DNA from: Bacilli bacterium
GTDB taxonomy: Bacteria > Bacillota_I > Bacilli_A > ML615J-28 > CAG-698
Assembly: GCA_050953045.1 (NCBI GenBank)
Contig: JBMNLY010000001.1
Location: 156,534-220,533 of the forward strand
Reading direction: 5' to 3'
DNA: 64,000 bases
Under the pieces are notes generated by a model. That model worked only from the letters and a program-made list of their open reading frames with translations, had not been told where the DNA came from and did no database searches. Of this stretch, positions 919-39,510 are shown piece after piece (position 1 is the stretch's first letter; each line of letters opens with the position of its first letter). The position numbers were made by a program, and so were the translations under genes.

Positions 919-3306
919 ATGAATTGGCGTATTGCTATTGATGGCCCTGCTGGTGCAGGTAAAAGTACAATTTCAAAAAGAGTCGCAAAAATTCTCGGTT
1001 TCGAATACATCGATACCGGAGCAATGTATCGTGCTGTTACTTTAAAGGCATTAGACTTAAAAATTAACTTGCATAACGAAGATGATTATAAGTTTCTTGA
1101 AGAAACAAAAATTGATTTTCGAAATCAACGTTTGTTTTTAGATGATAAAGATGTTTCTGATAAAATCAGAAGCTTGGAGGTCTCGAACAATGTCTCGTTA
1201 GTTTCTAGTTTCGGTTATGTCCGCGAGAAACTCGTGCAGCTTCAGAGGAAACTCGCCGAGAATAAAAATGTGATAATGGATGGACGCGATATCGGAACAG
1301 TGGTCCTGCCGGATGCTGAACTCAAGGTCTTTCTTAATGCTGATATTAAGGAACGGGCGAAGCGGAGGTTGAATGAACGCTTAGAAAAAAATCAACCTGT
1401 CCAAAGTCTAGCAGCGACGATCGAGGAAATCAGAGAACGCGACCTCAAGGATAGCCAACGCGCGATCAGTCCTTTACAAAAGGCGGTTGATGCGTTTGAG
1501 ATTGATACATCTAAATTAAATGTTGATGAAGTGGTTGAAGAAATAATTAAGTTAGTGTTGAAAAGAGGTTACAAAATGGAGAATTTAGAAAAAAACAAGA
1601 TGCTTCAAAATGAAGAAACAACTGCTGAAGAAATGCAAGCGAAAGAAGAACAAATGCCCGAAACAGCCGATGTTTTAGAGGCAAAAACCGAAGAAGTTCC
1701 GACTGAAAATGCGGAAGCTTTAGAAGAAAAAGTTCAAGAAGAACCTGCTGAACAAGCAGAAGAAACTGCGGCACCTGCTGAAGAAGCAGAGGAAGAAGTT
1801 TCTGATGAAGATGATGATCTTGACGAAGACGATGTAGATCAAGAATCTCACGAAACAGAAGCACCGGAAGATGCTGACGATGAAGACGAAGCGACCCCTG
1901 AAAAACCTAAGTATCGTGAATTACAGGTTGTAGAAGGAACGGTTGTAGAAGTAATCGAAGCACGTCCGGAAGAACGTCGCGGAAACAAAGTTATCAAAGC
2001 GAAGAAAGAAAGAGTCTTAATTCAGCTTGATGACGGGCAGGAAGGTTATCTGTTCCGCAGAGACACTGCCGATATTCGTGAAGATGAAGATTTATTTGAT
2101 TTATTCCTTGAAGGCGACCGCGTACAGGTTGTCATCAAGAAAATATATCCTGACGGAGGAAAATTCATATTCTCAACCGTGCTTTTAAAGATGCGGAACG
2201 AATTGAAGCAATTTGATGAAGTGATTAAAAATCACGGCATCATCACAGCAAAGGTTGTAAAAGAGTTAAGCGTTGGCTATCTCTTAAAACACAATGAATT
2301 TTCATGTCTCCTTCCGTCAACGCAAGTTGCGGTTCCGGAAGATGAAAGAGAAAACTTCATCGGTTCGGAAATCGAAGTTGCACCGATTAGAATTGATTAC
2401 GGACGCATTCGTTTAATCGTCTCGCAAACTGTTGCTAACGCCATTAAGAAGCGTCAAGAAAAACGCGAATTCTTGGAAACTGTTGAAGTCGGACAAGTAT
2501 TTGATGGCGTTGTTAAGAACATTGAATCTTATGGGGCGTTTGTTGAAATTGCGCCGGGAGTTGAAGGTCTCCTGCATATTTCCGAACTAGATCATAAGCG
2601 TGTTTACAAAGTTGAAAAAGTCTTAAATGTCGGAGATCCTGTTAAAGTTCAAGTTATCAAAGTTGATGATGAACGTGTCGGACTCTCTCGCAAAGCTCTG
2701 CTTCCGAATCATTGGTCGGATTATGTTGCTGACAAAGAAGTCGGTATGGTTATCGAAGCTGAAATTATTGAAATCAATAATTCCGGCGTTGTCTTGCAAC
2801 TTGCGGAAGAAGTTACCGGTTTCTTGCCGAAGAGTGAATTTGCTTATGAACGCAATACTTATATAACTGACTTTGTAGAAGTCGGCGAAAAAATTTCCGC
2901 AAAAATAATTGAAATTGATCCTCATAAGAAGAGAATTATTCTTTCCAGAAAACAACTTACCGAAAATCCTTGGGAAAACTTAGATTGCAAAGTTAACGAT
3001 ACAGTCGAAGTAACCATCTTCAAGGAATTGAAGGAAGGATATAAAGTCTCGCTTGGTGGCGCAATCGGGTATCTTCCGAAGAGAAGCGTTCCTGCACAGG
3101 AAACTGTTTCTGAAGGTGATGTCGTTAAGGCTAAAGTTCGCGTCTTCGATCCACAAAAAACTCGTTTGGTTGTCAGCATGAGAGCCGAACAAGAAAGACA
3201 AGAACGCGAAGCTTACGGCAAGTTTATGAAAACTCAAACTCAAGAAAAACTTTCCGATACCTTTGGCGACCTTATAGAAGATCAATTGAAAGGACTTAAA
3301 AAATAA
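919..3306 (+). CDS. cmk: cytidylate kinase fused to ribosomal protein S1 (four S1 domains) via ~100-aa acidic low-complexity linker
   Basis: N-term GPAGAGKST P-loop Cmk; E/D-rich linker aa ~230-330; C-terminal repeated S1 folds (GxV.G.V..I..G.FV). Confidence 0.85.
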   Translation: MNWRIAIDGPAGAGKSTISKRVAKILGFEYIDTGAMYRAVTLKALDLKINLHNEDDYKFLEETKIDFRNQRLFLDDKDVSDKIRSLEVSNNVSLVSSFGYVREKLVQLQRKLAENKNVIMDGRDIGTVVLPDAELKVFLNADIKERAKRRLNERLEKNQPVQSLAATIEEIRERDLKDSQRAISPLQKAVDAFEIDTSKLNVDEVVEEIIKLVLKRGYKMENLEKNKMLQNEETTAEEMQAKEEQMPETADVLEAKTEEVPTENAEALEEKVQEEPAEQAEETAAPAEEAEEEVSDEDDDLDEDDVDQESHETEAPEDADDEDEATPEKPKYRELQVVEGTVVEVIEARPEERRGNKVIKAKKERVLIQLDDGQEGYLFRRDTADIREDEDLFDLFLEGDRVQVVIKKIYPDGGKFIFSTVLLKMRNELKQFDEVIKNHGIITAKVVKELSVGYLLKHNEFSCLLPSTQVAVPEDERENFIGSEIEVAPIRIDYGRIRLIVSQTVANAIKKRQEKREFLETVEVGQVFDGVVKNIESYGAFVEIAPGVEGLLHISELDHKRVYKVEKVLNVGDPVKVQVIKVDDERVGLSRKALLPNHWSDYVADKEVGMVIEAEIIEINNSGVVLQLAEEVTGFLPKSEFAYERNTYITDFVEVGEKISAKIIEIDPHKKRIILSRKQLTENPWENLDCKVNDTVEVTIFKELKEGYKVSLGGAIGYLPKRSVPAQETVSEGDVVKAKVRVFDPQKTRLVVSMRAEQERQEREAYGKFMKTQTQEKLSDTFGDLIEDQLKGLKK

Positions 3307-12341: not shown

Positions 12342-14014
12342 GGTAGTGTAAAGTTTTAGTGGGTAAATATAGATATATTAGTTATATAGCTATATTTAAG
12401 CATTTTGAAAACTGAAGAAATTTTCTAACTATAAAGCCACTTTGGTGACACAAGATTATGAATGTAGTTTTTCATATTTGTGTTATTAGATTCCATTATT
12501 GCTAACTCAATATTGTAATCATAAAACTTCTTATACATCTTATTTGCTGCTAAACTTCTGACATTCTTTTGTTCTTGAATTGGTTTCTTCCATTCAAGGA
12601 TATCTTGAATTGTTAATTCGTAAAGATTAGCATTCATTACTATTAGTTGAATTAGGTTTTCTAAAACAGTTCTTTTAAAACCTTTTGGTCTAGATGTTAA
12701 TCTAGATGCAAGTACATGTGATATATGTCCTTCCATACTACATGAGGTTTTATATTCAGGATGTAGTTGGTTTTTAATGTATATCCAGTTGTTGCAGATG
12801 TAGCGCACATGGGAGTTAAAGGCATCAATGTTTAGTTTGTGATCCGGATTATTTTCATAGAAGTACATTGCTATTAATTTAAACTGATTTTTATCTAATG
12901 TTTTTAAATTACTAAAGAAAAAATTAATCATTTCTTTATTTCCAGAAAAGATAGAATTTAATCTTTTCCTTAAGTGAAACTTATCTAGAACTTGAATAAT
13001 CTGAATTTTATATCCACTAAAACAGTATCTTAGTTTTGAGGTGAAACTGTTAATCCATTTAGCGCCATCACCACTAACAAATATATATTGGATATCTTCT
13101 ACATTAAACCTCTTAGGGATATAATCGAAGATTCTATCAGCAAAAATGCTTGTGTCAACGTTTAAACCCCCAAAATAGTGCTTATTTTCGAGTTCTTTTC
13201 GTTTTGAAGCTAATGTACTAGGAGAATGTCCTGTATGAAGTAAAGCTAGATTGGCGATTATGTTTTTGCTTGGTTTACTTTTAACTTCTTTTTCTTGCAA
13301 ATTGCAATGAGCTTCATCAAGTTCAATGTAAATTGTTTCTTTTGACTCATTAAATTTTTCAATGATTTCATCCATTCTAGGAAGATCATTTTCAACTATT
13401 GTATAGTTTTCTAAGATATTAGAAACAGTTTGACGAGAAACCTCTGTATCGGTTAATGCTTTTCTAGCAGCATAGGAAGCATTAACTTCAGTAGCCATTT
13501 TGGTTAACTCAACAATTGCATCCATTGAAAGTCTTGAATATTTGATTATCCCTAAGAAACTATCTACGAAGAAGAAGTTTTCAATATCTTGTGATTTATT
13601 AAGTGCAACATAATAACGTCTTTTAAAAGTAATAACACCAATAGATGTAATAAGAGTACGTTCTTTAAAACCGTGATTTCTATGAGTAGCTTTCCAAAGT
13701 TTGCTTTTAAAATATCTGTTATCAATTGTTTCTAGACATTCAATAATAGCTTGTCTAGTAAGTTCTTTAGAATATTCTTTAAATCTAAAAACAACATCAC
13801 TAAAAGAATAATTTTTAGGATTGCTCTTTAAAACTGGATTAGAATTTGATATAATATTCATGGGTGGGTCTCCTCTCTATGTTTGGTTTTGTCACTTAAA
13901 TTATAGCGAAGACTCACCTCATTGTAAAGATGAATATTATTAACTAATACAGTTATGGTGATTTTCACCATATTTTTTATTTTTTTGATTTACCCACAAC
14001 AAGTTGACACTATC
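12342..14014 (-). mobile_element. ISLre2-family (UPF0236) insertion sequence, complete copy with imperfect terminal inverted repeats and probable 8-9 bp TSD
   Basis: left end GGTAGTGTAAAGTTTTAGTGGGTAAAT vs rc of right end GATAGTGTCAACTTGTTGTGGGTAAAT; flanks TTTTTAAAAAA | IS | TTTAAAAAAAAAA. Confidence 0.75.
12425..13861 (-). CDS. ISLre2-family transposase (UPF0236), 478 aa
   Basis: size, motif GDGAKWI and overall similarity pattern to ISLre2/UPF0236 transposases of clostridia; second identical 5' part at window start. Confidence 0.7.
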   Translation of the reverse strand: MNIISNSNPVLKSNPKNYSFSDVVFRFKEYSKELTRQAIIECLETIDNRYFKSKLWKATHRNHGFKERTLITSIGVITFKRRYYVALNKSQDIENFFFVDSFLGIIKYSRLSMDAIVELTKMATEVNASYAARKALTDTEVSRQTVSNILENYTIVENDLPRMDEIIEKFNESKETIYIELDEAHCNLQEKEVKSKPSKNIIANLALLHTGHSPSTLASKRKELENKHYFGGLNVDTSIFADRIFDYIPKRFNVEDIQYIFVSGDGAKWINSFTSKLRYCFSGYKIQIIQVLDKFHLRKRLNSIFSGNKEMINFFFSNLKTLDKNQFKLIAMYFYENNPDHKLNIDAFNSHVRYICNNWIYIKNQLHPEYKTSCSMEGHISHVLASRLTSRPKGFKRTVLENLIQLIVMNANLYELTIQDILEWKKPIQEQKNVRSLAANKMYKKFYDYNIELAIMESNNTNMKNYIHNLVSPKWLYS

Positions 14015-14106
14015 TTTAAAAAAAAAAGACTAGACAAGGCTAGTCTGCTATGTTATAATAAACTCAGAAAAACAAACAAAGTACGCATATTCGAACGAGG
14101 TAAGAA

Positions 14107-33836: not shown

Positions 33837-33876
33837 ACTTATGTCTTAAGTAATATTAAGGAGGAAAAGACGACAT

Positions 33877-33884
33877 GTTAAAAA
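33877..33884 (+). repeat. 8-bp target site duplication GTTAAAAA (left)
   Basis: identical 8-mer abuts the outer end of each IS copy; second at 38577..38584. Confidence 0.75.
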
Positions 33885-33979
33885 GATTAAGCCCTTATAA
33901 TTGTGTAAAAAGAAAATGAGCCACAAACTCATATCCTCGGTTAGAATATAAGTGACAAACAAATACCAAACCGAGGAGG

Positions 33980-35197
33980 ATGAAATCCATGGCTCAGTTT
34001 AATATTACCCTAACCGAAGAAGAATTGCACGGACTTTTTATAAGCAACGGACGAGATGTAGCCGTAGCAAAATTGCTAGAAAAGATCTTTAATGAGATCC
34101 TTCGAGGCCAGTCCACTGAACAGCTATGTGCTGAACCGTATGAGAGAACCGATCAGCGAAGAGCATACCGTAATGGCAGCTATAAGCGTGAACTGGTGAC
34201 CCGGGTTGGAACACTGACCTTACGCATTCCTCGCCACCGAAACGGCGAATTCAGCACCGAACTTTTTGAACGTTATCAGCGGAGCGAACAGGCACTGGTG
34301 CTGGCCATGATGGAAATGGTGGTTAATGGTGTCTCTACTCGGAAAGTAGAAACCATCACCGAAGAACTCTGTGGCAAGAAGTTTTCTAAATCAACCGTTT
34401 CAGCTCTTTGTCAGAAATTGGACCCGCTGGTTCATGACTTTCGAACAAGACCGCTGGAAAGCCACTATCCGTTTTTGATAGTCGATGCCCTTTATCTCAA
34501 AGCGCGCATTAATAACAGGGTACAATCCAGAGGCTTACTTGTCGCTATCGGTGTCAACGAAAAAGGAAATCGGGAAGTTATCGGCTTTCAAGTGGCCAAT
34601 AGCGAATCGGAAAGCAGCTGGAGCGATTTTTTTGAATCATTAAAAGAGCGAGGGCTGAAGGATGTGCACCTGGTGACTTCCGACAACCATAAAGGCCTGG
34701 TGAATGCCATTCAGAAACAATTCCAGGGAACCACTTGGCAAAGGTGTCAAACCCACTTTTCAAGGAACATGATTGATCAGACACCCAAATCGCTGCAGGT
34801 CGAAATGAAGGAAGATCTGCGCCGACTTTACGAAGCCGTAGACCTGGAAAGCGCCAAAGGTGTCCGGGATCAGATTATTGCCACATATGAATCCAAAGCG
34901 CCTAGAGCAACATCCTTACTGGATGAAGCCTTTGACGATATTACCGCCGTTTTAATCATGCCACTCAAATACCGCAAAAGACTGCGTACAACCAATGGGG
35001 TAGAACGGCTTAACCAGGAAATCCGGCGTCGTGAACGGGTTATACGTATTTTCCCTAACGAGGCATCAGTGATCCGGCTCATGGGTGCCCTGCTGATGGA
35101 ACAAAGCGAAAAATGGCAGACAGGGTGTAAATACTTTGAGATGGATCTGTATTACCAGGCTATGAAAAAAGATTCAAAAGATACGTTTGCTGCTTAG
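33980..35197 (+). CDS. IS256-family (MULE) transposase; probable true start ATG 33989
   Basis: YPFLIVDALYLKAR, WQRCQTHFSRN, RTTNGVERLNQEIRRRERV signature blocks. Confidence 0.85.
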   Translation: MKSMAQFNITLTEEELHGLFISNGRDVAVAKLLEKIFNEILRGQSTEQLCAEPYERTDQRRAYRNGSYKRELVTRVGTLTLRIPRHRNGEFSTELFERYQRSEQALVLAMMEMVVNGVSTRKVETITEELCGKKFSKSTVSALCQKLDPLVHDFRTRPLESHYPFLIVDALYLKARINNRVQSRGLLVAIGVNEKGNREVIGFQVANSESESSWSDFFESLKERGLKDVHLVTSDNHKGLVNAIQKQFQGTTWQRCQTHFSRNMIDQTPKSLQVEMKEDLRRLYEAVDLESAKGVRDQIIATYESKAPRATSLLDEAFDDITAVLIMPLKYRKRLRTTNGVERLNQEIRRRERVIRIFPNEASVIRLMGALLMEQSEKWQTGCKYFEMDLYYQAMKKDSKDTFAA

Positions 35198-35401: not shown

Positions 35402-35505
35402 TTTCGCGGCATAAAAGCTCACGGTTTGTGATACTGAAAAAGTGAGCAGCCTTAACAACAAACTGATTAAAGTGTTACCGAGGAAATTTACACACTAATT
35501 GGGAC

Positions 35506-35534
35506 TTGACTTTGTAACGTTTGCATATTATCAT
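35506..35534 (+). promoter_or_regulatory. possible hybrid promoter: outward -35 TTGACT at IS end + flank -10 TATCAT (17-nt spacer) directed at SDR gene
   Basis: IS256 ends are known to create hybrid promoters; geometry fits. Confidence 0.35.
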
Positions 35535-35621
35535 ATTATTACAGTATTTGATTCGTGTGTTAACCAAATAGCGGAAATGTTAAACGAAAAGAAAGAGGTG
35601 ATGTGTAAGTAGAAACACCTG

Positions 35622-36059
35622 AAAGATAAAAATTTAGAAAGGTGGAATCTATAATGGGTAAATTAGATGGCAAAGTAGTAGTAGTGACAGGTTCAGTTTC
35701 AGCGATTCCTGGTTTTGACTCTATCGGTTCGGCAACAGTTCGTGAAGCATTGGCTGAAGGAGCAAAAAAAGATAAAAATTTAGAAAGGTGGAATCTATAA
35801 TGGGTAAATTAGATGGCAAAGTAGTAGTAGTGACAGGTTCAGTTTCAGCGATTCCTGGTTTTGACTCTATCGGTTCGGCAACAGTTCGTGAAGCATTGGC
35901 TGAAGGAGCAAAAAAAGATAAAAATTTAGAAAGGTGGAATCTATAATGGGTAAATTAGATGGCAAAGTAGTAGTAGTGACAGGTTCAGTTTCAGCGATTC
36001 CTGGTTTTGACTCTATCGGTTCGGCAACAGTTCGTGAAGCATTGGCTGAAGGAGCAAAA
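35622..36059 (+). repeat. tandem triplication (3 x 146 bp) of SDR gene leader + RBS + first 37 codons
   Basis: ATGs at 35654, 35800, 35946 each preceded by GGTGGAATCTATA; upstream minigenes end ..ERWNL TAA overlapping next ATG (TAATG). Confidence 0.9.
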
Positions 36060-36875
36060 GGGGTAGTTGTGTCCGACATTAACGACAAATTGGGTGAAGC
36101 TTTTGTTAAGGAATTAAATGAGAAATACGGTGAAGGACACGCAACTTTTGTTCACACTGACGTATCTAAACCTGAAGATGTTGAAAAATTATTTGAAACT
36201 ACAGAAAAGGTTTATGGAACTGTAGATGCAATAATGGCTAATGCCGGCGTGGTAACTGCAGAAGATGTCGATAAAGATCCGGAAGAAGTCTTGAAATCTC
36301 GTAAATTTATTCAAAGCATCAATGAAGATGGAGTATTCTATACAGCATTATATGGTTCTCGTTTAATGATCAAAAAAGGAACAAAAGGTTCAATCGTAAT
36401 GGTTTCCAGTATTCATGGTGTTGCAGGTCGTCCTAAAGTTGTAAATCAGGAAACAGGCGATGTTTTAATTGAGCGTTTCAATTTACTTCAATATACAATG
36501 GGTAAACATGGCGTAGTTGGTTTATCAAAAGCATTAGCCCTGCAATTAGCAGATTATGGTATACGCGTAAATACTGTAAATCCAGGTTATATTATGACAC
36601 CATTATTCCAAGCAGCTGTAGCTGCCGATAAAAACGATCTGGCAGATAAAGATTCATTGACAACAGAAGCATTTGACTTTGCTCAATTAGCAGCATTACA
36701 CCCATTATGCAATGACCCTGTAAAAGATAAAGATATCGTTCCTCGCGGCAAATTCGGCGGCCGGATGGGGGTTCCTGCTGAAATTGCTAAGCCTGCGGTA
36801 TTCTTAATGTCAGATGAAGCATCCTTTGTGACAGGTCAAAAATTAGTAATTGATGGGGGTTATACTGCAAGCTAA
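35946..36875 (+). CDS. short-chain dehydrogenase/reductase (SDR) family oxidoreductase, transposon passenger
   Basis: YTMGK (YxxxK), NTVNPGYIMTPL, atypical Gly-rich N-term TGSVSAIPGFDSIGSA; ORF-track start 35934 is an upstream GTG. Confidence 0.75.
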   Translation: MGKLDGKVVVVTGSVSAIPGFDSIGSATVREALAEGAKGVVVSDINDKLGEAFVKELNEKYGEGHATFVHTDVSKPEDVEKLFETTEKVYGTVDAIMANAGVVTAEDVDKDPEEVLKSRKFIQSINEDGVFYTALYGSRLMIKKGTKGSIVMVSSIHGVAGRPKVVNQETGDVLIERFNLLQYTMGKHGVVGLSKALALQLADYGIRVNTVNPGYIMTPLFQAAVAADKNDLADKDSLTTEAFDFAQLAALHPLCNDPVKDKDIVPRGKFGGRMGVPAEIAKPAVFLMSDEASFVTGQKLVIDGGYTAS

Positions 36876-36949
36876 AAGCAACCTAATAATCACTAAACCG
36901 TGTAAATGGAATAATGATCTAAAAATCTAGTTAGGGGCTGCTGAAAAAC

Positions 36950-38576
36950 GATTAAGCCCTTATAATTGTGTAAAAAGAAAATGAGCCACAAACTCATATC
37001 CTCGGTTAGAATATAAGTGACAAACAAATACCAAACCGAGGAGGATGAAATCCATGGCTCAGTTTAATATTACCCTAACCGAAGAAGAATTGCACGGACT
37101 TTTTATAAGCAACGGACGAGATGTAGCCGTAGCAAAATTGCTAGAAAAGATCTTTAATGAGATCCTTCGAGGCCAGTCCACTGAACAGCTATGTGCTGAA
37201 CCGTATGAGAGAACCGATCAGCGAAGAGCATACCGTAATGGCAGCTATAAGCGTGAACTGGTGACCCGGGTTGGAACACTGACCTTACGCATTCCTCGCC
37301 ACCGAAACGGCGAATTCAGCACCGAACTTTTTGAACGTTATCAGCGGAGCGAACAGGCACTGGTGCTGGCCATGATGGAAATGGTGGTTAATGGTGTCTC
37401 TACTCGGAAAGTAGAAACCATCACCGAAGAACTCTGTGGCAAGAAGTTTTCTAAATCAACCGTTTCAGCTCTTTGTCAGAAATTGGACCCGCTGGTTCAT
37501 GACTTTCGAACAAGACCGCTGGAAAGCCACTATCCGTTTTTGATAGTCGATGCCCTTTATCTCAAAGCGCGCATTAATAACAGGGTACAATCCAGAGGCT
37601 TACTTGTCGCTATCGGTGTCAACGAAAAAGGAAATCGGGAAGTTATCGGCTTTCAAGTGGCCAATAGCGAATCGGAAAGCAGCTGGAGCGATTTTTTTGA
37701 ATCATTAAAAGAGCGAGGGCTGAAGGATGTGCACCTGGTGACTTCCGACAACCATAAAGGCCTGGTGAATGCCATTCAGAAACAATTCCAGGGAACCACT
37801 TGGCAAAGGTGTCAAACCCACTTTTCAAGGAACATGATTGATCAGACACCCAAATCGCTGCAGGTCGAAATGAAGGAAGATCTGCGCCGACTTTACGAAG
37901 CCGTAGACCTGGAAAGCGCCAAAGGTGTCCGGGATCAGATTATTGCCACATATGAATCCAAAGCGCCTAGAGCAACATCCTTACTGGATGAAGCCTTTGA
38001 CGATATTACCGCCGTTTTAATCATGCCACTCAAATACCGCAAAAGACTGCGTACAACCAATGGGGTAGAACGGCTTAACCAGGAAATCCGGCGTCGTGAA
38101 CGGGTTATACGTATTTTCCCTAACGAGGCATCAGTGATCCGGCTCATGGGTGCCCTGCTGATGGAACAAAGCGAAAAATGGCAGACAGGGTGTAAATACT
38201 TTGAGATGGATCTGTATTACCAGGCTATGAAAAAAGATTCAAAAGATACGTTTGCTGCTTAGAGTCGCATTTATTCCACGGTCCTGGTTGACAGTGAGCC
38301 TCTAGCCGCATGGCTTCTGGCACCACAGGCAGCCCCCTGTTCACAACTGCCTACCTGGTCCTAATGGGTGATTTAAAGCTGCCGAGTATTGCCATAAAGG
38401 TTGTCCCGTGTTTGGGTGCTGCCAGGCTTTTAGCCTACCATGCGGCCTCTCACTGTTCAACCAGGCTTTCGCGGCATAAAAGCTCACGGTTTGTGATACT
38501 GAAAAAGTGAGCAGCCTTAACAACAAACTGATTAAAGTGTTACCGAGGAAATTTACACACTAATTGGGACTTGACT
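36950..38576 (+). mobile_element. IS256-family insertion sequence, copy 2 (identical to copy 1)
   Basis: identical sequence and ORF content. Confidence 0.8.
37045..38262 (+). CDS. IS256-family transposase (copy 2)
   Basis: identical to 33980..35197. Confidence 0.85.
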   Translation: MKSMAQFNITLTEEELHGLFISNGRDVAVAKLLEKIFNEILRGQSTEQLCAEPYERTDQRRAYRNGSYKRELVTRVGTLTLRIPRHRNGEFSTELFERYQRSEQALVLAMMEMVVNGVSTRKVETITEELCGKKFSKSTVSALCQKLDPLVHDFRTRPLESHYPFLIVDALYLKARINNRVQSRGLLVAIGVNEKGNREVIGFQVANSESESSWSDFFESLKERGLKDVHLVTSDNHKGLVNAIQKQFQGTTWQRCQTHFSRNMIDQTPKSLQVEMKEDLRRLYEAVDLESAKGVRDQIIATYESKAPRATSLLDEAFDDITAVLIMPLKYRKRLRTTNGVERLNQEIRRRERVIRIFPNEASVIRLMGALLMEQSEKWQTGCKYFEMDLYYQAMKKDSKDTFAA

Positions 38577-38584
38577 GTTAAAAA
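38577..38584 (+). repeat. 8-bp target site duplication GTTAAAAA (right)
   Basis: see 33877..33884. Confidence 0.75.
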
Positions 38585-38586
38585 GA

Positions 38587-39510
38587 ATGTTAATGGTTTT
38601 AGTAGCCGTATTTAGTCTCTTTGCTCTTACAGCTTGTGGAGAAAGAACTTATAAGGCTGACGGTGTTTATGCAGCATTTGCTGAAAGCACAAATTATGGA
38701 GCTCCTCAAATTACAGTTGTAACTGTCACAATTAAAAATGACAAGATTGAAAGCTTCTATATTGATTGCTTACAATCTACAGCTGTAAAAAATGAGGAAG
38801 ATGTTGTAACCGGTTATAATTTTAACGAAAAAACTAAAAAAGAATTACGTTATGATTACCGTATGCACGGACCGGGTATGGATGAAGAAGAATATTTAGA
38901 TTATCTTGAAGAAAATAACAAACTTGAATGGTTTGAACAAGCAGAACTTCTTGAAGCTTATTTCAAAGAAAACGGCACAGATTTAACTGTTGACAAAGAT
39001 GGCTATATTCAAAACGTTTCTGGTGTTTCCATTGTCGATAGCGATTATTCAAAATTAGCTAAAAAAGCAGTTGAAAATGCGAAAGCCGGAAAAGTTTATA
39101 GCTGGGTTGCAACAGGTGGCTCAACTACTAGTCTGATTTGGGCTGAAGGTACAGTTGATAAGAATGGCAAATTAACCAGCCTGAAACTTGATACTCGCCA
39201 AGGAAGAATAACCGACGGTACATTTGCTTGGGATGAAGAAACCAAACAAGAAAAGGGTTATGATTATCGTATGCATGGACCAGGCATGGAAGAAGAAGCA
39301 TATTTAGATTATCTTGAAGAAAATAACAAACTTGAATGGTTTGAACAAGCAGATCTCTTAGCTGCTTATGTTCTTGAAAACGGCTTGGCGAATGTAAAAT
39401 ATGATGATAACGGCAAACTTGATAATGCACCGGAAGCAATCGCTGAGGTCTCAGTTACCGTTAACCATTATGTAAAAGTTATGAAAGATTTAGTAGATAA
39501 CTGGAAATAA
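38587..39510 (+). CDS. lipoprotein with internal ~50-aa duplication; 5' end (first 4 codons, RBS, promoter) severed by transposon
   Basis: lipobox LFALTAC; repeat YDYRMHGPGM(D/E)EEEYLDYLEENNKLEWFEQA twice; residual ORF lacks SD and positively charged n-region. Confidence 0.7.
   Translation: MLMVLVAVFSLFALTACGERTYKADGVYAAFAESTNYGAPQITVVTVTIKNDKIESFYIDCLQSTAVKNEEDVVTGYNFNEKTKKELRYDYRMHGPGMDEEEYLDYLEENNKLEWFEQAELLEAYFKENGTDLTVDKDGYIQNVSGVSIVDSDYSKLAKKAVENAKAGKVYSWVATGGSTTSLIWAEGTVDKNGKLTSLKLDTRQGRITDGTFAWDEETKQEKGYDYRMHGPGMEEEAYLDYLEENNKLEWFEQADLLAAYVLENGLANVKYDDNGKLDNAPEAIAEVSVTVNHYVKVMKDLVDNWK

Follow-up and report, generated by a model that had tools for sequence, protein, structure and literature searches.

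Tandem duplications in the attenuators of the resistance genes erm(C) and erm(A) result in constitutive macrolide-lincosamide-streptogramin B (MLS-B) resistance, according to PMC3429524 and to Lodder et al. (1996, AAC 40:215) as cited there. In erm(C), for example, the start site is left accessible by a 63-bp duplication that carries an extra Shine-Dalgarno (SD) sequence, SD2, together with a truncated start of the gene (PMC3429524). Translationally coupled genes provide a second point of comparison. Coupled gene pairs are enriched in stop/start spacings of -1 nt, the efficiency of coupling is highest from -4 to +3 nt, and there are precedents both for the TAATG spacing and for unwinding by the ribosome (PMC12548453). 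In the mycobacterial interspersed repetitive unit-variable-number tandem repeats (MIRU-VNTR), as Supply et al. (1997) are cited in PMC12548453, internal small open reading frames (ORFs) overlap the stop and start codons of their neighbours and downstream expression is preserved. Hybrid promoters of the insertion sequence (IS) IS256 are also known, for example at walKR in Staphylococcus aureus (PMC6702299). Here we compare these systems with a locus in a 64,000-nt stretch of DNA from a Bacilli bacterium (GCA_050953045.1, contig JBMNLY010000001.1, positions 156,534 to 220,533), which we refer to as the window. In this locus the start segment of a gene for a short-chain dehydrogenase/reductase (SDR), the passenger of a composite transposon, is present in three tandem copies. 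The array is a real and most likely very recent duplication whose unit number varies from one to three, and we tentatively propose, at slightly less than an even chance, that it raises or de-represses translation of the SDR.

The array consists of exactly 3.0 head-to-tail units of 146 bp at 35622-36059. Tandem Repeats Finder reports a period of 146, 3.0 copies, 100% matches, 0 indels and a score of 876, and self-BLAST aligns 292/292 identities (E 9e-154); perfect identity over 438 bp is far above chance expectation. A repeat search of the window places the beginnings of the 146-nt copies at 35622, 35768 and 35914, and finds no copy of the unit elsewhere in the window, so that the repeat is confined to a single locus. 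Each unit has the SD AGGTGGA, the ATG and 38 complete SDR codons. A preliminary description of this DNA had reported the triplication and a complete SD and ATG in each copy, and both hold for all three units; the phase (35625, 35771 and 35917) and the end (36062) given there are 3 nt off. The features of the array are as follows.

35622..35767, plus strand: repeat unit 1, with the SD, the ATG at 35654 and SDR codons 1-38
35768..35913, plus strand: repeat unit 2, identical to unit 1, with its ATG at 35800
35914..36059, plus strand: repeat unit 3, identical to units 1 and 2, with its ATG at 35946; it heads the intact SDR gene
35654..35800, plus strand: minigene A, 48 codons, whose TAA overlaps the next ATG; the 48-aa product is called on contigs in 33 blocks of a public sequence collection
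35800..35946, plus strand: minigene B, 48 codons, whose TAA overlaps the ATG of the SDR gene
35946..36875, plus strand: the intact SDR gene, 309 aa, passenger of the transposon (Pfam adh_short_C2 3e-44, adh_short 3e-34)

Because 146 = 3 x 48 + 2, the frames opened by the two upstream ATGs run for 48 codons, made up of 38 SDR codons and the tail KDKNLERWNL. The total of 48 aa had been given correctly before, while its division into 37 SDR codons and an 11-codon tail should read 38 and 10. The last A of each TAA (35798-35800 and 35944-35946) is the first base of the next ATG, giving TAATG (-1 nt) at 35798-35802 and 35944-35948, and AGGTGGA lies within the last 7 codons of each minigene. The overlap between units described previously is thus confirmed, and its spacing of -1 nt is one of those over-represented in coupled pairs. 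Both junctions fall within the range of -4 to +3 nt and have the downstream SD inside the upstream ORF, as coupled pairs do. A ribosome that ends a minigene would therefore be placed on the next start, and judged from the sequence a role of the array in SDR expression is plausible. The arrangement resembles coupled gene pairs and the bicistronic designs of synthetic biology, in which the upstream short ORF contains the downstream SD and stops on a TAATG over the downstream ATG (PMC12548453); in both, the ribosome that translates the upstream ORF should open up structure and pass on to the next start. The difference is that the upstream ORF here derives from the 5' end of the gene that it precedes, as a frame-shifted copy made by duplication and neither designed nor anciently evolved, and that its coupling is a prediction.

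The way in which the repeat arose bears on a further explanation. According to the preliminary description, A-rich microhomology at the junction agrees with slipped-strand duplication. The breakpoints share 0 nt, both being mismatched (35621, g, against 35767, a; 36060, g, against 35914, a), and the nearest AAAG/AAAG pair is spaced at 143 nt, not 146. That the duplicated segment and its flanks have no base in common argues against simple slippage between short direct repeats. The array was also said to be possibly an intermediate of gene amplification under selection, formed by slipped-strand mispairing at this microhomology. The location of the SDR gene on a mobile element and the signs of selection on its upstream region would agree with amplification, but only the 5' 146 bp are repeated, which leaves gene dosage unchanged, and the required breakpoint homology is missing. 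Moreover, no locus has a repeat of the whole gene, except for the IS-SDR-IS loop that is expected from short-read assembly of a composite transposon. The sequence contradicts this explanation, and we regard it as very improbable.

The number of units varies between samples. A single unit is present in L001 (a 710-kb contig), L002 (472 kb) and L005-L008, two units in L011 (400 kb), L012 (519 kb) and L009, at least two in L003/L015, L014, L016/L060, L019 and L059, and three in L004/L013, at another insertion site, as well as in the window. A 3-copy array is also closed at a different site in ERZ2647956 NODE_6429. Most of the composite-transposon insertions sampled have at least two units, and in one sample (JGI 3300053716) 1-copy and 2-copy transposons are found on different long contigs. 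The 48-aa minigene product is listed in 33 collection blocks, compared with 120 for the 309-aa SDR protein, a census that is no reliable estimate of frequency because short-read contigs break or collapse at the repeat. The identical junction is found with one, two and three units on independent contigs, at different insertion sites and with different 8-bp duplications, and the variation in unit number is therefore a real polymorphism and not an assembly error. That the copy number in the window is itself an artefact of assembly is hardly credible. Short-read assemblers do mishandle 146-bp repeats, the array of L010 is interrupted by a scaffold gap and several contigs break off within the array, but at least 10 independent assemblies, produced by several projects, contain the junction, the 3-copy array has been closed at a second site, and 2-copy arrays lie within contigs of 400-520 kb. 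The window also resolves two 1.6-kb IS copies, as long-read assemblies do. The preliminary description had named collapse to one copy in independent assemblies as the mark of an artefact; 1-copy alleles do exist, but so do 2- and 3-copy arrays with the identical junction at other insertion sites. As a separate observation, in the 2-copy allele of L017/L018 (153-298) the last unit has the change C82G (Ala17Gly, in the glycine-rich loop), while the upstream minigene copy keeps the C. Repeat copies can therefore diverge and are not quickly homogenised.

Variable-number tandem repeats at gene starts are also what makes the MIRU-VNTRs similar to this locus. As they are described in the cited source, MIRUs are dispersed at many loci, have units of about 40-100 bp and a spacing of -4 nt, whereas the array is the self-duplication of one gene's start at a single locus and is absent from all orthologues. 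The resemblance is loose because the array repeat is not a dispersed family.

The element that carries the array is delimited by the following features.

33877..33884, no strand: left 8-bp target-site duplication GTTAAAAA, matching 38577-38584; the empty sites L096 and L097 have a single GTTAAAAA
33885..35511, plus strand: IS256-family IS, copy 1, 1627 bp, with the ends GATTAAGCCC... and ...GGGACTTGACT
33980..35197, plus strand: transposase gene of IS copy 1, 405 aa (Pfam Transposase_mut, E 4e-129)
36950..38576, plus strand: IS256-family IS, copy 2, in direct orientation (direct repeat in self-BLAST)
38577..38584, no strand: right 8-bp target-site duplication GTTAAAAA, following IS copy 2
38587..39510, plus strand: remainder of a lipoprotein gene, which is split after codon 3; its original ATG is at 33875

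IS copy 1 lies in a direct repeat of 1633 bp that is 99.94% identical to 36944-38576. Its product is a DDE transposase of the Mutator/IS256 type (PF00872, E 4e-129; NCBIfam transpos_IS256, 392.5 bits with a cut-off of 150), and the terminal inverted repeats of the IS are imperfect (33889-33909 and 35487-35507, 76% complementary over 21 nt). Identical IS ends are bounded by 8-bp duplications at three sites, those of the window (GTTAAAAA), of L001 (CATTCTTA) and of L011 (AGCTCACC); in L012 the transposon has no 8-bp target duplication around it. Empty sites with a single GTTAAAAA and an uninterrupted lipoprotein gene start were found in L096 (GCA_012841865.1), L097 and the short contigs L099, L100 and L102. 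L096 and L097 have an uninterrupted lipoprotein gene of 311 aa, with flanks 98-99.9% identical to the window. The target duplication and the empty sites prove the composite transposon; the SDR gene is the passenger of an IS256-family composite transposon, and every membership feature tested was found. Like the described IS256 composite transposons and hybrid promoters, it has two direct IS copies flanking the passenger, an 8-bp target duplication and an outward -35 at 17-18 nt from an adjacent -10. It differs in that the IS is 1627 bp long and occurs in metagenome-assembled genomes (MAGs) of anaerobic-digester Bacillota, not in staphylococci or enterococci, and in that the promoter is a candidate. 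Among loci the transposon is nearly clonal, with 0-4 single nucleotide polymorphisms per 2.8 kb, and its spread is therefore recent. MAGs with a closely related transposase are labelled Lutisporaceae, Thermoanaerobacterales and Syntrophothermaceae, and those with an identical SDR protein Saccharofermentanales, Desulfitobacteriaceae and Dysgonamonadaceae. Together these labels point to anaerobic-digester communities. In L005 (3640-3880) and L008 an IS21-family element (IstA/IstB) abuts the passenger at the position of window nt 35512, where the IS256-family element ends. One passenger boundary is thus common to two IS types, IS21 and IS256, and the IS21 end holds a tandem duplication of 50-odd bp.

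Where the preliminary description stopped at the array, we find three things around it that were missed: the composite transposon, an IS-borne -35 hexamer and a predicted hairpin that would sequester the SD and has its 5' arm just outside the repeat. The features between the IS and the first unit are these.

35506..35534, plus strand: candidate hybrid promoter TTGACT-17 nt-TATCAT (10/12 in a promoter scan)
35512..35621, plus strand: unique leader from the IS end to unit 1, ending with the anti-SD CACCUG (35616-35621)
35609..35652, plus strand: predicted hairpin in which CACCU (35616-35620) pairs with AGGUG (35640-35644) of the first SD; its 5' arm is outside the repeat

In unit 1 (fold of 35596-35665) the SD is predicted to be paired, at -10.1 kcal/mol and z -2.0, while in the equivalent context at the junction between units it is unpaired, at -4.6 kcal/mol and z +0.5. 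For full-length transcripts with 1, 2 and 3 copies, the computed probability of an unpaired SD is 0.29 in unit 1 and 0.45-0.60 in the units that follow it. The boundary of the duplication falls 1 nt after the anti-SD, CACCU(G), so that the added copies, including the one that heads the intact gene, would be without the inhibitory partner.

On these grounds the erm attenuator duplications appear, by analogy, to be the closest precedent. In both cases the tandem duplication includes the gene's SD and a truncated 5' coding segment, and the functional start lies downstream of the SD-sequestering stem, here a predicted one, and free from it. In each, a mobile element underwent illegitimate recombination or slippage. 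The unit described here is 146 bp with up to three copies, compared with about 25-63 bp in erm, the hairpin is weaker, the locus is without a convincing leader peptide or a four-stem attenuator, and the gene encodes an SDR and not a resistance methylase. We have not placed the array in the erm attenuator family because there is no recognisable leader-peptide attenuator. A leader peptide of the erm or cat type was looked for and rejected: MLNEKKEVMCK (ATG 35578) has a poor SD, the SD of MCK abuts its ATG, and there is no four-stem arrangement. The frame in question (35578-35613; the ATG of the nested MCK at 35602 is preceded by AAAGAGGTG) ends at a TAG that falls in the hairpin's 5' arm. CACCU could also pair with a further AGGUG (35595-35599) in competition with the first SD, a possible switch by alternative pairing in which neither start has a well-spaced SD.

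The candidate -35, TTGACT, is formed by the last 6 nt of the IS and the candidate -10, TATCAT, lies in the passenger. All 1-copy alleles have a spacer of 18 nt between them and both 3-copy alleles one of 17 nt, and among 2-copy alleles either length occurs, giving the nested series 1 copy/18, 2/18, 2/17 and 3/17. In L003/L015 (2500-2580) unrelated DNA with a perfect TATAAT lies upstream of the SDR gene, beside the gene of a large serine recombinase, and meets the SDR sequence at unit nt 17; this rearrangement removes the anti-SD and leaves the SD open. A full promoter TTGTAT-17-TATAAT was rejected for L003, the -35 having only 3/6 matches, below what the scan reports. The same contig runs on through the IS into a leader with at least two units, and the variant may reflect either a genuine second copy of the SDR gene or a route that the assembler took through the repeat.

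The junctions could also act on transcription rather than translation. TTGGCT (unit nt 129-134) lies 17 nt upstream of TAAAAA(T) (unit nt 6-12), and under this explanation each duplication would have created a promoter from which extra transcription starts ahead of each SD. The motif TTGGCT-17-TAAAAA is present at 35750-35778 and 35896-35924 and, as unit 1 has no -35-like hexamer upstream of it, it is peculiar to the junctions. The match is only 8/12, under the scan threshold, the -10 is without either its first or its last T, and the resulting 5' untranslated region would be only about 14 nt long. We consider a junction-created promoter improbable.

Our proposal that the array raises or de-represses SDR translation would account for these features in the following way. 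The first duplication would have arisen once, without microhomology, in an allele borne by the transposon, and unequal recombination between the 146-bp repeats would have taken two copies to three, while the transposon kept moving between genomes with the array aboard. In the 1-copy allele the SD would be paired with the anti-SD CACCUG. In the added copies, including the head of the intact gene, the SD and ATG would be freed from the 5' arm, and ribosomes ending an upstream minigene at UAAUG would open the region and begin again at the next ATG. In the 3-copy array, minigene B, being open and well translated, would feed the SDR start directly. The nested allele series, the -35 supplied by the IS, the L003/L015 rearrangement and the prevalence of at least two units fit selection on expression, although this evidence is circumstantial.

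Several points weigh against this proposal. The hairpin is modest, with 5 SD pairs and -10 kcal/mol, 7/200 shuffles fold equally well, and it is not conserved in the native orthologues, which have AUACCCG in place of ACACCUG. Two copies already give escape from the hairpin, and the third needs an extra argument from coupling or none at all. There would be a cost in translating two useless 48-aa peptides. The 1-bp spacer change takes an overlapping promoter candidate in the passenger, TTGTAA-16-TATTAT, off the 17-nt optimum. The loci are few and related by descent, and common ancestry of a few lineages, not selection, could account for the allele series. Copy numbers from short reads are not fully reliable, as the Ns inside the array of L010 and the contig ends within other arrays indicate.

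The main alternative, and a serious rival, is that the array is a neutral and unstable duplication which hitch-hikes on a transposon spreading for other reasons, its copy number drifting by unequal recombination. Since the last unit is identical to the start of the 1-copy gene, with SD, ATG and frame intact, the duplication is tolerated by construction. The near-clonality of the element leaves little time for loss, 1-copy alleles persist in several contexts, and the weakness of the hairpin evidence, with native leaders that have no anti-SD, is also as neutrality would have it. On the other side, most of the sampled insertions have two or more copies, although perfect 146-bp repeats should be lost readily, and the breakpoint is placed 1 nt past the anti-SD. 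The same segment is lost through a rearrangement of independent origin (L003/L015), and copy number climbs in step with the change in the promoter spacer. We rate neutral hitch-hiking as only somewhat less probable than our proposal. We also considered a stronger form of the proposal that the array raises SDR translation. In this form the array would be a naturally evolved translational 'rheostat', tunable by copy number, that adjusts a newly mobilised gene to each host. It would combine hairpin escape with minigenes chained by TAATG, under stepwise selection along 1/18, 2/18, 2/17 and 3/17 together with the IS-supplied promoter. We think this unlikely.

The passenger gene is a classical SDR, with matches to PF00106 and PF13561 and the YxxxK motif present as YTMGK. 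No NCBIfam model reaches its cut-off, and among PDB structures the best relatives (E 6e-35 and weaker) belong to the SDRs and the R-specific alcohol dehydrogenases. A specific function was sought and not assigned, as Pfam, NCBIfam and PDB give only a generic SDR; the neighbours of native orthologues, an MpsC-domain protein and a zinc alcohol dehydrogenase-like (Zn-ADH-like) ORF, are uninformative for function. The identical 309-aa protein is listed in 120 blocks of the public collection and recurs widely in anaerobic-digester metagenomes. Genome and metagenome scans gave about 70 orthologous loci at 83-95% identity, all of which have a single leader and start, as the preliminary description had expected of the same gene in other genomes. 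Orthologues with 90-95% amino acid identity are in MAGs of Syntrophomonas and of Thermacetogenium type, and those with 83-85% are in many Proteobacteria, for example Novosphingobium (L039) and Pusillimonas (L037), among loci L020-L095. In Stenotrophomonas sp. JC08 (L046), the sole proteobacterial locus examined, the SDR gene adjoins resolvase-like and integrase-like ORFs. The unusually high conservation across phyla suggests, from sequence comparison, that the gene has spread widely by horizontal transfer under selection. The leader is homologous to the native loci only from 35605 on, 17 nt upstream of the unit; the 93 bp that follow the IS end (35512-35604, including the -10) have no homology to native orthologues. 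A regulatory hairpin conserved in the native orthologues was looked for and found no support, as native leaders fold weakly (z +0.9 to +1.5). A megablast search of a plasmid collection gave no match to the passenger, and a search of viral contigs gave none to the junction pattern. In L014/L016/L060 (JGI24501J29690_1000138) an SDR allele of 95% identity, with its own single leader, lies directly upstream of an IS, and the 100% allele with at least two units lies downstream of the same IS. This arrangement could result from recombination between a resident orthologue and the transposon, or could hint at the origin of the element.

The lipoprotein gene split by the transposon lies downstream of an rnf cluster, and ATG 38587 at the start of its remainder has no obvious SD. 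The lipoprotein has no significant Pfam family. It has an internal repeat of 150 bp with 85% identity (38827-38976 and 39235-39384, spaced at 408 bp), which indicates a duplicated domain. Elsewhere in the window, 1-851 and 13168-14017 are the two copies of another long direct repeat (99.8% identity over 851 bp), one of which is cut by the start of the window. An ORF of 478 aa on the minus strand (12425-13861, Pfam UPF0236) overlaps the second copy, and the repeat is probably a second, unrelated mobile element. At 919-3306 there is an ORF of 795 aa in which a cytidylate kinase domain is fused to S1 RNA-binding repeats, a fusion of the Cmk-RpsA type.

Across anaerobic-digester Bacillota the nearly clonal transposon carries the SDR with 100% conservation, and the SDR has relatives of 83-85% identity in Proteobacteria; strong selection may therefore bear on its substrate. 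A neutral array would be of use only as a strain marker. Alleles with one, two and three copies and with spacers of 17 and 18 nt on a spreading transposon make up a ready-made allelic series that is directly testable. Should the array indeed boost expression, it would exemplify in nature how a horizontally acquired gene is tuned after transfer by duplication of its own initiation region. The principle of the erm attenuator duplications would then extend beyond resistance genes, and the locus would be a wild counterpart of the bicistronic designs of synthetic biology.

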